NCBI GenBank assembly: GCA_000165345.1
Contig: CM000436.1
Coordinates: 1,152,001-1,216,000, forward strand
Direction: 5' to 3'
DNA: 64,000 nt
The notes beneath the pieces were generated by a model that searched no databases, was not told the DNA's origin, and worked only from the letters and a program-made list of their open reading frames with translations. This document shows, piece by piece, positions 244-56,331 of this stretch (its first letter is position 1; every line of letters begins with the position of its first letter). The position numbers and the translations under genes were made by a program.

Positions 244-1342
244 GGCTACTCTTTCCAAAAAGTTGTATGCCTGTCCAATATTGTAATGTAAATCTTCAGG
301 TCCAAATTACGAGATTCTGCATAAATCTCAGTCCAGAATTAGAGTATAAGCTTTCCAAGATGTTGATTTCCTTTAATTTCTAATATTTTATCGGTACCTT
401 ATAGTTTTTTTATCTTGGATCCTCAGTAAATTTTCTCAAACTTGTATATGTAGAACCCCTCAATCAAATACTCATAATAGTATATCATCAAATTATTGAG
501 TTCGACTCCTCCTTTAGTCAGTAAATTAAAAAAAAAGCAACTGAGCTCTTTCTCTTATTTTCTTCTTTTTTATTTACTCTTTGAACATTTTCATATTTTG
601 TGCAAACTATCTACTCAAATAGCAGACATACAGACGTACATACGTATTGACTGTCCAATAATATGTGTAGTTACTTGCTATTCCATCACGCGGCTGTCTG
701 CACCTACCCTCCCTTTTTAATATCTATTATTGAGACATATATGTATCAATAATTTTATTAAAAAAAAACTGAACTTGCTTTTCAGTTTTTTAATTCAACC
801 TTAATTTTTTTATTTAATTAAGATAATCTTATTCAACAAAATTTGATTTTTCTAATGTTTTCAATGTCATGCAATTTACACCCATTTTGCCAATTTTCGC
901 CGGTATACATTTTTTTTTTATCAGACATGTGGGGATTGACACGTGTATTTTTTTTCTAATTGATTTTTTTTTCTTAAACAGTTGTATAATAATTTTATTA
1001 AGCTTCATAAATTCGCTTGAAGCCTGATCATCATTCATATAGAACAAGAGATTTTAACTAAGAGAAAATACTAGATATTGGTCAAACTAAATCACTAATC
1101 TAACACTTTGATAATAATTAAACGTTAATTTCCACATTGATACTTTATACCATTTTCCGAGCATATTGACAAAAAAAAAATACGTGAAAATTAATTAGTT
1201 AAATTTTTTTTTTTCTTGAAATTTAGAAACAAATTATATCTTATTTTAACTAAATATTTTACTTTAATATTAATTAGATAAATCACTTTGCTTATCAATT
1301 ATTTACTTCAATTCAATAGATTTCAATTTATACCGCCTATCA

Positions 1343-1356
1343 ATTTGGCGCCAAAT
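1343..1356. promoter_or_regulatory. perfect 14-bp palindrome ATTTGGCGCCAAAT (E2F-like site) about 590 bp upstream of the ELO gene; related GAAGGCGGGCT at 1389..1399 and TTTTCGCCGG at 894..903
   Basis: Seen directly. It matches the E2F/DP consensus TTTSSCGC on both strands. It is an isolated GC island in an AT-rich spacer. Confidence 0.5.
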
Positions 1357-1943
1357 TGTGGTTATGAATTTATGAATAATATTGCTGTGAAGGCGGGCTA
1401 AAAAGGGGGGAGTCAGGTATTTGTTCATTCAGAATAAATAAAAAAATGTATATAATATATATATATATATATTATATACATATGAATTGAAAATGATGGG
1501 TACCGTAAATAAATTTGTTGAACAAGTAATACAAAATTTGAATGTATTTATAGTTTAAAAAAGTTAGTATTAAATCATTAATTATTACACAAGTGAGAAC
1601 ATATATAAATATAAATATACTTGGAGATTTAATAATAATAAATTAATATTAAGAAAAGAAGAAGTATTTTGAATATAAAAAGTTCTCCTGTACAAGTACG
1701 AGCTCGAAGATATTTTTAATAAGCCTATTTTGTTTCAACTTTTTGTATTATTTGAAGTTCATGTAAAATAATTCTTGGATATATTTTTATATTACTTTTC
1801 ACTCAAATATTCAATTGGGAATCTATTAGCCTATATCTAATAGCACTCAATACAAATTTGCAATAAATTAAAAGTATAATGCAATTATAACATTAAATTA
1901 TTAAAGAATTATATTATAAAGATAATTAATAAAGGAGACAAAA

Positions 1944-2915
1944 ATGATCATAAAAAATAATAATAATGGGTATTTTATTGATAACGTTAATAAAATTTGG
2001 GAGATCCCTATAAATAGTGAGCATATGGACATTTTAAAGGAAATTCCATGGTTTAAATATCTTACTCTACCAATTGAAAGAAATTGGAATGGTATGAAAT
2101 TATTCCTTTGGACCAATGATAATTATTATCTTGCACACACAATCTGCATAATATATGCATTTTTCATATACTTTGGACCCAAAATTATGGAGAAACGAAA
2201 ACCTTTCAAATTGGAAAAACCTTTAAAATATTGGAACTTGTTTTTGGCACTTTTTTCATTTATTGGAACCCTACGTTTAATGCCATATGTTCTAACCAAC
2301 CTCATTAAGTATGGCTTTGTATCATCCATCTGTTCTCCTCCTATTGCTCCACTAACAAAAGGTCCAGCTGGCTTATGGCTCAGCTTATTTATATATTCTA
2401 AATATATTGAATTAATTGATACATTTTTTATTATTGCTAGAAAAAAATCACTTTCTTTTTTACACTGGTTCCATCACCTTACTGTACTCCTTTACACATG
2501 GGATGCTTATGTCTGCTGCCAAACTATTGGAGTCTTTTTTTGCGCCATAAACTACTTTGTTCATTCAATTATGTACTTTTACTATTATTTATCCTCTTGT
2601 GGTAAGAGACCAAAATGGGGTATGATCATCACAATCTTACAAATTGTACAAATGATTATTGGTACAATTCTAACCACTTCAGGTATGTATTACTCTTATA
2701 AACACCCATTTGCCAATGTATTTCCAGTTGAATATCTAAGTCAACCTCTCAAAGTTGGTTGTCACTTTATCAGAACCAACGGTGTTTTTGCCTGCCTTAT
2801 GTACATCTCCTACTTTGCTTTATTCTTTGACTTCTTTATCAAAAGATATATCACAAAAGGTACACCTCTTGCTGAATGGGTAACTGCCAATAAAAAACCA
2901 ACTAAGCGCGATTAG
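1944..2915 (+). CDS. ELO-family (GNS1/SUR4) long-chain fatty acid elongase
   Basis: 323-aa ORF with an ATG start. It has multiple TM helices and the ELO histidine box FLHWFHHLTVLLYTW (HxxHH). The C-terminus carries a basic di-lysine-like tail, NKKPTKRD. Confidence 0.85.
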   Translation: MIIKNNNNGYFIDNVNKIWEIPINSEHMDILKEIPWFKYLTLPIERNWNGMKLFLWTNDNYYLAHTICIIYAFFIYFGPKIMEKRKPFKLEKPLKYWNLFLALFSFIGTLRLMPYVLTNLIKYGFVSSICSPPIAPLTKGPAGLWLSLFIYSKYIELIDTFFIIARKKSLSFLHWFHHLTVLLYTWDAYVCCQTIGVFFCAINYFVHSIMYFYYYLSSCGKRPKWGMIITILQIVQMIIGTILTTSGMYYSYKHPFANVFPVEYLSQPLKVGCHFIRTNGVFACLMYISYFALFFDFFIKRYITKGTPLAEWVTANKKPTKRD

Positions 2916-3261
2916 TACCCCTGGCCTTATTATATTCAAAATGGCGGGAAAATGTGCATATAAGAGATATATAATATATATGCTTGTATATATTTAAAAT
3001 CAGGATAAGCAAGTTGTATAAGAATTATCACAACTCTTTGAATTGACTATAATAAGCCTATTCTACATCAGTAATTAAAAAAATGGATAATTCTAATTCA
3101 GGAATGAGAAAAGGAAATAACTTATTTAAAGGAAGATAATTAATTATAAAATATTAGAAATTGTTTAGCCTAGTAATTAAGATAATAATGTAAATGGCTA
3201 TATGATTCTTACATATTTTTGAGCTCTCTTTTTTATTGCTTTAATAATTTTCCTATGATGA

Positions 3262-55209: not shown

Positions 55210-55278
55210 AACAGACAGACAAATAAAGCAGACAGATGAATAAACAGAGAAATGAATAAGCAAAAAGATGAATAAATC
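55210..55278. repeat. 4 copies of a roughly 16-nt purine-rich tandem repeat (CAGACAGACAAATAAAG / CAGACAGATGAATAAA / CAGAGAAATGAATAAG / CAAAAAGATGAATAAAT)
   Basis: Seen directly. Confidence 0.6.
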
Positions 55279-56243
55279 TACAAAAATAAGAAAGAAAGGA
55301 AAAAAAAAAAGAAAAGGAAGAAATAGACTAAAGAATACTGAGAAAAGTTCTTTATTGATAAGGAATGGGAGGGAAAGAGAAAAAAAAAGTTAAGTTTTCC
55401 AATATGTTGAAATAATCTTTTTCTCTTATTAACTAAGTAATAAGATTTAAATAAAAAAAAATATATTATAATGAACTCGTATAATTGTTTAATCTAAATA
55501 AATTAATTAAATCTTTTATTGATATATCCCAACTTAAAAGAAATATATAAACTTTCTTAAATATACATCAAATAATATTTGGATATTAACAATAATTGAC
55601 TAGAAGAAAAGCAATTGGTGATTATTTTCTTTTTTCTTTTCCACATCTTTATTTATTATTTATCTTTAATATTAATGAGTATAATGGGGAAAAAAAAGAG
55701 AAATTTACACAAAATATTAAACAAATACAGGAATAGATAAGTTATGATTTCTTAATATTTGAATTATAAAATAAGAATAAATCAATTAATTAAAAACAAT
55801 AATATAACATTATTAACAAACGTTGTAANNNNTNTNTTAATGTTTTTCTATCATATTTATTTATTTTCCTTTTAGAAAATTTATTAATATAAAAAAATAA
55901 TAATAATAATAATAATAATATTAAAAGTTATTAGAAAATAAGTCAAATTTANTTTTGTAAATTTAATTGTATTATTTGTAATATAATTATAACAAAAAAG
56001 TGTTTTTTTTTTTAAATAAATATATTAATAGCATGTACTATTAATTATTACTAATTTATAAAGATTACAATGAGTAATTGTCAAAAATAAAGCATAAAAA
56101 TTAATAAAAATAATAAGCTTTTGTTTATATATATTATTTAAGTTAATTGATACTAAATGAAACTAAAATTTATTTAGAAAAAAAAAGAAGAAAATTCAAT
56201 TTATAAATTATATTCAAATAGTAGATAATAATTAATATTATAT

Positions 56244-56286
56244 TACTATTATTATTATTATTATTATTATTATTATTATTATTAAT
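56244..56286. repeat. (ATT)14 microsatellite; also (AAT)n at 55906..55922
   Basis: Seen directly. Confidence 0.9.
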
Positions 56287-56304
56287 AAATATTGTATTAA
56301 TTTT

Positions 56305-56331
56305 TTTGGCGGGAAAAGAATTTGCATGCAA
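56305..56331. promoter_or_regulatory. TTTGGCGGGAAAAGAATTTGCATGCAA, a canonical E2F site plus GCATGC, about 190 bp 3' of the NCoR-like gene stop
   Basis: Seen directly. No annotated gene lies downstream within 1.8 kb. See findings. Confidence 0.35.

Follow-up and report, generated by a model that had tools for sequence, protein, structure and literature searches.

Short GC-rich boxes of the general form W-GGCG[C/G][C/G]-W (e.g. TTTGGCGCCAAA and TTTCCCGCC/GGCGGGAAA) are enriched in the non-coding DNA of a 64,000-nucleotide stretch of genome (the window), lie upstream of diverse genes and are conserved between Cryptosporidium species; taking the E2F assignment from published work, they are very probably E2F-like cis-elements of C. 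parvum promoters. The observation is real and not new, as this motif family was already described for C. parvum (Bankier 2003; Oberstaller 2013, 2014). Earlier publications cover the motif, how abundant it is and its link with open chromatin, so the window adds only a worked local example of them, together with cross-species footprint evidence of selection on individual sites. The window is part of C. parvum chromosome 8: its seryl-tRNA synthetase (SerRS) has the same sequence as EAK89605.1 of C. parvum Iowa II and proteins encoded in the window are found on 1.34-Mb chromosome records of C. parvum, so that the apicomplexan origin guessed in the first-pass annotation was right. For the RING/FHA protein encoded at 44276-46618, an exact-sequence look-up found no record. 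How Cryptosporidium, a major cause of diarrhoea in children, regulates its genes is poorly understood.

Strict cores were defined as published, [C/G]GCGC[C/G] or GGCGGG, and both strands were scanned. Of the 29 in the window, 27 fall within its 19,110 bases of non-coding DNA and 2 within its 44,890 bases of coding DNA. The first-pass annotation had counted at least 30 instances, a figure that is reached with near-matches (TTTCCCGC at 34067, TGGCGCA at 52722 and GAGCGCCA at 47313) and missed by strict cores; every position it had listed carries the sequence it gave, e.g. ATTTGGCGCCAAAT at 1343-1356, TTCCCGCC...GGCGGGA at 21498-21528 and AATGGCGCCATT at 50855-50866. The canonical E2F consensus TTTSSCGC has 13 exact matches in the window compared to 0.58 expected from shuffles, and the 27 non-coding cores with their flanks read WWT-GGCG[C/G][C/G]-AAA, the reverse complement of TTTSSCGC(C). 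The boxes therefore carry the E2F/DP-site consensus, its symmetric [C/G]GCGC[G/C] core and its T-/A-rich flanks, which bears out their earlier description as E2F-like.

A de novo ranking of 6-mers, in which the non-coding DNA was scored against 300 dinucleotide shuffles, recovered the same words. CCCGCC (15 copies versus 0.23 in shuffles, 64-fold), GCGCCA (17 versus 0.48) and GGCGCC (10 versus 0.08, 130-fold) were the highest-ranked non-repeat 6-mers, at 35-130-fold over shuffles. GCATGC (11 versus 0.56, 20-fold) and CATGCA (27 versus 3.3) were also in excess, and the E2F-like and GCATGC-type words together ranked right after poly-A, interspersed only with AT-repeat words. Other all-G/C hexamers used as controls (GGGCCC, CCGCGG, CGCGCG and others) occurred in 0-2 copies each. 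This near-absence and the 20-130-fold excess over dinucleotide shuffles rule out chance or a compositional artefact and uphold the proposed enrichment; the boxes were overrepresented in non-coding upstream DNA relative both to background and to coding DNA.

The first-pass annotation had called the boxes the only GC islands of the spacers, which is overstated: of the 38 non-coding runs of at least six G/C, 26 overlap a core, leaving 12 without one. Non-coding RNA genes were considered as a source of GC islands; a single tRNA-Ser was found, which accounts for the islands at ~24038-24081 and covers none of the motif sites. Frequent pairing at 10-25 bp had likewise been claimed. The excess of strict pairs 6-25 bp apart is real (4 versus 0.71 expected, P=0.004), but involves a minority of sites, so that "frequently" goes too far. 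The proposed co-occurrence with GCATGC stood up, with 5 of 10 non-coding copies lying within 50 bp of a core (1.2 expected, P=0.003). The sites, with strand in brackets, are as follows.

1347..1352 (.): core TTTGGCGCCAAA, a perfect palindrome, within ATTTGGCGCCAAAT at 1343-1356; SNF2/PHD(-)/ELO(+) divergent spacer, ELO ATG 592 bp downstream
1392..1397 (+): core GAAGGCGGGCTA, 45 bp from the core at 1347
2943..2948 (+): core AATGGCGGGAAA; convergent spacer, 27 bp past the ELO stop; candidate promoter of an antisense or unannotated transcript
4645..4650 (.): core AAAGGCGCCAAA; ATG of WD40 gene 142 bp downstream
5382..5387 (-): core CAGCCCGCCAAC, 257 bp upstream of a Pol delta subunit 4-like gene
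7525..7530 (.): core TATGGCGCCAAA; 397aa(-)/194aa(+) divergent spacer, with GCATGC repeats at 7475-7484, 50 bp from the core
9848..9853 (-): core CTTCCCGCCTAA; Brix gene 318 bp downstream
14957..14962 (-): core TTACGCGCCAAC, 128 bp upstream of a RIO-type kinase gene
17041..17046 (.): core TTTGGCGCCTCA; 605aa(-)/SerRS(+) divergent spacer
17276..17281 (.): core ATTGGCGCCAGA, with near-match TTTGGCGTCA at 17258-17267
17459..17464 (.): core AATGGCGCCCAT; SerRS ATG 230 bp downstream
19082..19087 (+): core GAAGGCGGGCTT; 161-bp convergent SerRS/DHHC spacer, 23 bp past the SerRS stop
19106-19113: AP2_1 motif TGCATGCA in the same SerRS/DHHC spacer
21500..21527 (.): inverted pair TTCCCGCC...(16 bp)...GGCGGGA, spanning 21498-21528; DHHC(-)/PPTase(+) divergent spacer
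23133..23138 (-): core TTACCCGCCAAA; annotated 95-aa gene 124 bp downstream
26172..26191 (+): pair GGCGCCAGACCTTTGGCGGG; central position in the 526-bp DEAD(-)/PRMT(+) divergent spacer; likely a bidirectional promoter element
27849..27860 (.): overlapping cores TTTCCCGCCGGCGCG; CPSF_A-domain gene ~310 bp downstream
34067..34089 (+): near-matches TTTCCCGCTC, which fits TTTSSCGC, and ATGGGCGG; 2 bp past the CPSF_A stop, RIC1 ATG ~400 bp downstream
40233..40251 (+): near-match GGCCGCC and TTTGGCGGG; annotated 88-aa gene 209 bp downstream
42164..42182 (-): direct pair TTCCCGCCTGATTTTCCCGCC; V-ATPase subunit c gene ~400 bp downstream
43350..43355 (.): core GAAGGCGCCAAA; 2.5-kb spacer, ATG of the RING/FHA gene 921 bp downstream
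47274..47332 (.): cluster ATGGGCGCCTGCATG-TTTGCATGCATA...GAGCGCCACATGCAT that combines a strict E2F core with a near-match and three (T)GCATG(C) sites of AP2_1 type; FCP1-like gene 841 bp downstream
50600..50605 (+): core AATGGCGGGCTC; annotated 113-aa gene 347 bp downstream
50858..50863 (.): core in palindrome AATGGCGCCATT (50855-50866), with GCATGC at 50845, 13 bp away; 113-aa gene 89 bp downstream
52708..52750 (.): TAF9(-)/Kazal(+) divergent spacer, with no strict E2F core; GCATGC at 52708 and 52745, near-match TGGCGCA at 52722
56308..56329 (+): TTTGGCGGGAAAAGAATTTGCATGCAA, a canonical E2F site plus an AP2_1 site; 2-kb convergent spacer, 206 bp past the stop of a 2409-aa gene; candidate promoter of an antisense or unannotated transcript

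The C. parvum genome is compact and nearly intron-free, with spacers of ~0.2-2.5 kb. Of the 18 promoter-bearing spacers of the window, 15 contain a strict site and 17 contain one when near-matches count, close to the "almost every" spacer of the first-pass annotation, compared to three of the seven convergent spacers with a strict site. Two of the remaining promoter-bearing spacers contain near-matches only, and the spacer at 13146-13973 has neither a strict site nor a near-match. On an ORF-only map, eight sites had fallen into "convergent" spacers. NCBI gene calls for the same chromosome place five of them upstream of genes that are small or contain introns (the 95-, 88- and 113-aa genes and kinase, PPTase and TAF9 exons), and three stay convergent; four apparently misplaced sites lie 89-347 bp upstream of the three small annotated genes. 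The distance from core to ATG is about 89-921 bp, and in single-promoter spacers we saw no rule for the orientation of GGCGGG versus CCCGCC relative to the downstream gene. The genes that follow are functionally unrelated and include those for a fatty-acid elongase (ELO), Brix, SerRS, DHHC palmitoyltransferase, PPTase, DEAD helicase, PRMT, V-ATPase subunit c and FCP1; they do not form the cell-cycle or DNA-synthesis regulon of classical E2F behaviour.

Individual sites have been retained during evolution. Eleven C. parvum cores in six orthologous spacers were aligned with C. ubiquitum, C. canis and C. felis, and all 11 are conserved in at least one of the three, as expected under purifying selection. 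On average a core is conserved in 2.09 of the three species, compared to 0.17 for random 6-mers (permutation P<1e-5); non-orthologous spacers give 0.07, which rules out anchoring by the aligner as the source of the signal. The sites stand as conserved islands amid otherwise unalignable spacers of the four species, at similar offsets from the flanking genes. The cores at 17041 and 17459 are identical in all four and the pair at 26172..26191 is kept in all four. C. ubiquitum and C. canis both keep the cores at 9848 and 19082, and the overlapping cores at 27849..27860 are identical in these two species. The core at 17276 is kept in C. ubiquitum and in C. canis a GGCGGG/CCCGCC pair takes its place, the left arm of the inverted pair at 21500..21527 is kept in two species and the right arm in one, and for the core at 14957 both C. 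canis and C. muris have a core at a similar offset. The neighbouring TGCATGCA at 19106-19113 is kept in C. ubiquitum only (GCATAC in C. canis). Restriction to non-coding DNA was seen also at loci of five other species, including C. canis with ~45% GC. At the C. bovis and C. muris loci sites are sparser (0.56-0.72 per kb), and the SerRS spacer has none.

These observations are in line with genome-wide studies. Motifs 3 and 4 of Oberstaller 2013 comprise [C/G]GCGC[G/C], GGCGGG and TGGCGCCA, and published work ranks the E2F-like motif first among over-represented upstream motifs of C. parvum and places it upstream of 161 of 200 co-expression clusters whose expression peaks at any time point. Together with the unrelated housekeeping genes of the window, this agrees with the first-pass proposal that the boxes serve promoters in general and are not specific to the cell cycle. 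In sporozoites the E2F-like motif is the most prominent in ATAC-seq peaks genome-wide; peaks with the motif lie at transcript 5' ends, and more than half of the ATAC-seq peaks are bidirectional promoters (Xiao 2025). Among motifs upstream of antisense lncRNAs the E2F-like one likewise ranks first (Li 2021). According to the literature, Cryptosporidium is the sole apicomplexan genus to retain E2F/DP, and C. parvum has two E2F genes, two DP genes and no Rb orthologue; the E2F genes are listed as cpbgf_1001560 and cpbgf_6001430 and the DP genes as cpbgf_7003650 and cpbgf_8001850, although cpbgf_7003650 is called E2F later in the same paper (Xiao 2025). None of these E2F/DP genes is encoded within the window. 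The E2F-like box is the leading candidate for the main promoter element of Cryptosporidium, and other apicomplexans lack E2F/DP. A 2025 review considers functional validation lacking for most regulatory components.

The most likely mechanism is that the parasite's E2F/DP winged-helix heterodimers bind the boxes. Once bound, they would mark the promoter region or open it for transcription in one or both directions, and they may do so too for antisense or unannotated transcripts with their start in a 3' spacer. A subset of the promoters may in addition be served by stage-specific ApiAP2 factors acting via adjoining TGCATGCA sites. In published protein-binding microarray work several C. parvum AP2 domains bound TGCATGCA, known as the AP2_1 site, and the earlier reading of GCATGC as AP2-type is thereby borne out. 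GCATGC occurs in about 9 of 25 spacers of the window and the AP2_1 site was not found in sporozoite ATAC-seq peaks, which suggests that it is likely stage-specific rather than a general element.

We regard as rather unlikely a further-reaching reading, in which E2F/DP in this Rb-less parasite has become a pioneer-like general promoter marker, with one or two boxes in each spacer defining where mono- and bidirectional mRNA promoters are accessible, and with conserved boxes 2-27 bp past stop codons (2943, 19082, 34067) serving doubly, ending one unit and launching an antisense or downstream one. Its promoter-marking half is already in print and only the dual 3'-end role would be new.

A poorer prospect is that the boxes are real conserved promoter elements bound by another factor (a GC-box-type zinc finger, an ApiAP2 domain or other), the E2F label reflecting mere resemblance. 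Among the papers we found, no ChIP, CUT&RUN, EMSA or protein-binding microarray experiment demonstrates direct E2F/DP binding or occupancy at these boxes in Cryptosporidium, and variants such as GGCGGGCTA and GGGCGG look like generic GC boxes. However, the T-/A-rich flanks and symmetric GGCGCC core fit TTTSSCGC specifically, the abundance of the motif coincides with the retention of E2F/DP by Cryptosporidium alone among apicomplexan genera, and on microarrays AP2 domains bound TGCAT, CACACA and the G-box, with the E2F-like motif classed among non-AP2 motifs.

Still less probable is that the boxes mainly insulate closely spaced genes by marking chromatin boundaries, which the first-pass annotation had offered as its alternative, or by terminating transcription. 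Four sites, three of them strict and one a near-match, are found just past stops or in convergent spacers (2943, 19082, 34067, 56308), and conservation of the 19082 site in two other species would fit such a role, but four of seven convergent spacers have no site, ATAC-seq peaks bearing the motif map to transcript 5' ends, and the 34067 site is also upstream of the next tandem gene. Published antisense lncRNAs begin near mRNA 3' ends with E2F and AP2_1 motifs upstream, and the 3' sites are thereby explained as promoters.

That the sites govern only cell-cycle or DNA-replication genes, with their ubiquity in the window a coincidence, is scarcely credible: E2F and DP transcripts do peak early in asexual development, and earlier work placed a GGCG-core motif upstream of a glycolysis gene set and is cited by Oberstaller 2013 for DNA-replication and glycolysis subsets, but the site-bearing genes here are unrelated and the motif precedes clusters peaking at any time point, which makes a classical E2F regulon less likely and does not weaken the assignment as an E2F-type site.

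Compared to the over-represented upstream motif of C. parvum (Bankier 2003; Oberstaller 2013), the E2F-like boxes of the window share the organism, the sequences and the non-coding, upstream location, and likewise have no fixed position or orientation. There is no essential difference; positional conservation in C. ubiquitum, C. canis and C. felis, though an expected property, extends the published comparison with C. hominis to further species. With animal and plant E2F/DP sites (TTTSSCGC; Arabidopsis TTTCCCGCC, TTTGGCGGG) they have in common the consensus, the T/A-rich flanks and the symmetric GC core. In those organisms, however, the sites serve a cell-cycle regulon under Rb, of which no orthologue is reported in Cryptosporidium, whereas the sites of the window precede nearly every gene whatever its function. 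The ApiAP2 site AP2_1, TGCATGCA (Plasmodium PF14_0633; C. parvum cgd2_3490, cgd8_810 and others), matches the GCATGC enriched in the spacers and differs from a general element in its limited distribution and in not having been found in sporozoite ATAC-seq peaks. In yeast, Reb1 and Abf1 are general regulatory factors whose sites set nucleosome-free promoter regions in a compact genome. The factors and sequences are unrelated, and we infer nucleosome exclusion by the Cryptosporidium boxes from the published ATAC-seq association only; the likeness is that both kinds of site are short, orientation-independent and present at a large share of promoters, including bidirectional ones.

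The first-pass annotation had described GC-rich E2F-like palindromes in almost every spacer, and all of the sites that it listed are present in the window at the positions it gave. The textbook E2F consensus TTTSSCGC was found 13 times in the window (0.58 expected), and the published Cryptosporidium core ([C/G]GCGC[G/C] or GGCGGG on either strand, hereafter strict site; boxes such as TTTGGCGCCAAA and TTTCCCGCC) at 29 sites; non-coding DNA (19.1 kb) holds 27 of them and coding DNA (44.9 kb) the other 2. Apart from the cores themselves, hexamers with the same base composition are almost absent. 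A motif-free ranking of every 6-mer of non-coding DNA against 300 dinucleotide-preserving shuffles placed poly-A ahead, followed by E2F-like words (CCCGCC, 15 vs. 0.23 expected; GCGCCA, 17 vs. 0.48; GGCGCC, 10 vs. 0.08) and GCATGC-type words (CATGCA, 27 vs. 3.3; GCATGC, 11 vs. 0.56), with only AT-repeat words in between; CGCCAA and CCGCCA also belong to this top group, between CATGCA and GCATGC. The latter is the palindromic word of the published AP2_1-type site, TGCATGCA. GAGAGA and CACACA rank lower than the E2F-like words, and the excesses of AAAAAA (432 vs. 219 expected), GAGAGA (17 vs. 3.9) and CACACA (11 vs. 2.0) correspond to motif families already published (poly-T, GAGA-like and AP2_2). 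Alignment of 27 sites revealed T-rich sequence 5′ and A-rich sequence 3′ of GGCG[C/G][C/G], and judged by this alignment the flanked core reads as the E2F consensus, readable on either strand. Binding of the boxes by a factor other than E2F/DP is unlikely: AP2 domains bind TGCAT, CACACA and the G-box, not the E2F-like motif (Oberstaller 2014 follow-up). A literature search for E2F/DP bound to Cryptosporidium boxes found no such paper.

Across the AT-rich window (27% GC), long open reading frames for eukaryotic housekeeping proteins are tightly packed. C. parvum chromosome-record gene calls, which supplied small or intron-containing genes absent from the list of open reading frames, were placed on window coordinates and gave 26 genes and 25 spacers. 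The order of three window proteins is the same on C. parvum chromosome records, at about 1.14–1.20 Mb, and the seryl-tRNA synthetase (SerRS) is identical to the C. parvum Iowa II protein (93% identity in C. canis, 82% in C. bovis and 77% in C. muris); these matches identify the window as part of C. parvum chromosome 8. A 780-aa RING/FHA protein (44276–46618, + strand) had no exact match on record, unlike its neighbours, which match C. parvum assemblies exactly, suggesting that the gene is polymorphic or carries a strain-specific substitution. At 51555–51557 the TAF9 gene (−) converges with an annotated gene of 113 aa (+), their stop codons 1 bp apart; therefore, their 3′ UTRs must overlap. The map also includes one tRNA gene:

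23987–24068, + strand, tRNA-Ser(CGA) gene, in the spacer between the 95-aa gene and the DEAD helicase gene

The boxes lie upstream of functionally diverse genes, the products of the window including a fatty-acid elongase (ELO), Brix, SerRS, a DHHC palmitoyltransferase, a DEAD helicase, PRMT, V-ATPase subunit c, an FCP1-like phosphatase and TAF9. Among the 18 promoter-bearing spacers (7 divergent, 11 tandem), 15 contain a strict site and two more a near-match (TTTCCCGC at 34067; TGGCGCA at 52722), while spacer 13146–13973 has neither. Distances from a site to the nearest downstream ATG range from 89 to 921 bp, and non-palindromic sites showed no orientation preference in the window. It is unlikely, set against this placement, that the boxes are boundary or terminator elements, a reading that would draw on the three of seven convergent spacers with a site (2943, 19082 and 56308, the last two adjoining TGCATGCA). 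Sites in convergent spacers may instead be accounted for because E2F and AP2_1 are the top motifs upstream of lncRNAs, which are mostly antisense and tend to lie towards mRNA 3′ ends (Li et al., 2021). The boxes at 2943, 19082 and 34067 come 27 bp after the ELO stop codon, 23 bp after that of SerRS and 2 bp after that of the CPSF_A-domain gene, respectively, a position consistent with the published antisense-lncRNA promoters. The 19082 box is kept in C. ubiquitum and C. canis, and its adjoining TGCATGCA in C. ubiquitum.

Further proposals of the first-pass annotation fared differently. Boxes had been taken for the only GC islands in the spacers; they make up most but not all of them, because a core overlaps 26 of 38 non-coding runs of at least 6 G/C, and the islands at about 24038–24081, which are not E2F-like sites, are accounted for by the tRNA-Ser(CGA) gene. 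Frequent pairing was overstated, even if four strict pairs 6–25 bp apart exceed the 0.71 expected (P = 0.004). Co-occurrence with GCATGC was borne out, as 5 of 10 non-coding GCATGC words lie within 50 bp of a core (1.2 expected, P = 0.003). Two spacers, 41769–44275 (2.5 kb) and 54529–56519 (2.0 kb), are unusually long for a compact genome. Neither contains an ORF of at least 100 aa, a tRNA or an Rfam match, and each has E2F-like and GCATGC sites distant from annotated ATGs (43350; 56308 with 56324), making both candidates for unannotated transcripts or long UTRs.

The window was compared with its syntenic loci in C. canis, C. bovis, C. muris, C. ubiquitum and C. felis. The core is nearly confined to non-coding DNA in all five, including C. 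canis at about 45% GC. Locus GC is about 40% in C. felis and 27–30% in C. parvum, C. ubiquitum, C. bovis and C. muris. Despite so large a shift in composition among members of the genus, gene order and E2F-like boxes are kept. Core offsets from flanking genes nearly coincide between C. canis and C. parvum; C. bovis and C. muris share offsets with C. parvum for single cores only. Core density in non-coding DNA is 2–3.5 per kb in C. ubiquitum, C. felis and C. canis, and 0.56–0.72 per kb in C. bovis and C. muris compared to 1.4 in C. parvum. C. bovis and C. muris both lack a strict core in the spacer upstream of SerRS, and synteny downstream of SerRS is broken in both. When six orthologous spacers of C. 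parvum, C. ubiquitum, C. canis and C. felis were aligned with MAFFT, the bulk of the spacer remained unaligned and the boxes showed up as islands of identical sequence. Each of the 11 C. parvum cores in these spacers is conserved in one or more of the other species, with a mean of 2.09 of 3 species, where all 6-mer windows average 0.17 (permutation P < 1e-5). Aligning non-orthologous spacers gave 0.07, ruling out that the aligner merely pulls GC words together. Core conservation together with this control shows that individual sites are under purifying selection.

The boxes are best read as E2F/DP-type sites that would act as general promoter elements independent of orientation, often for two divergent genes together. 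The conserved GGCGCC...GGCGGG pair (26172–26191) in the middle of the 526-bp spacer between the divergent DEAD and PRMT genes is probably such a case. Ten bp downstream of this pair lies GACATTATAATGTC (26201–26214), a perfect 14-bp palindrome present once in the window, within a block (AAGACAnTATAATGTCA) nearly identical in C. ubiquitum, C. canis and C. felis; no match to known motifs was made. In the divergent spacer between the 605-aa gene and SerRS, AATCTATAAAGT (17021–17032), about 10 bp upstream of GGCGCC at 17041, is kept in all four aligned species, as is a TATGCA block lying some 30 bp further upstream; AATCTATAAAGT may serve this promoter as a TATA-like or another core element. At a subset of promoters, TGCATGCA sites would contribute AP2-dependent input that is probably stage-specific.

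The literature supplies the E2F assignment, reports E2F and DP genes but no Rb, and links the motif with open chromatin; we infer that E2F/DP would occupy the boxes and have an activating or chromatin-opening role. The motif was over-represented in chromosome 6 non-coding DNA (Bankier et al., 2003, as cited by Oberstaller 2013), was described as a GGCG-core motif upstream of glycolysis genes (Mullapudi et al., 2007), and lies upstream of 161 of 200 clusters (Oberstaller 2014 follow-up). Oberstaller et al. (2013) labelled [C/G]GCGC[G/C] and GGCGGG E2F-like, and reported no Rb and, for clusters with this motif, peaks at any time point; a classical cell-cycle regulon is unlikely. Within ATAC-seq peaks of sporozoites, over half of them bidirectional promoters, E2F is the motif that stands out above all others and AP2 motifs were not found (Xiao et al., 2025 preprint), and a 2025 review describes most Cryptosporidium regulatory components as without functional validation. 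The first-pass interpretation of the boxes agrees with this published view of a motif family that is already known and well documented, to which our analysis makes small additions only: a site-by-site cross-species footprint and several conserved boxes within about 30 bp of stop codons.
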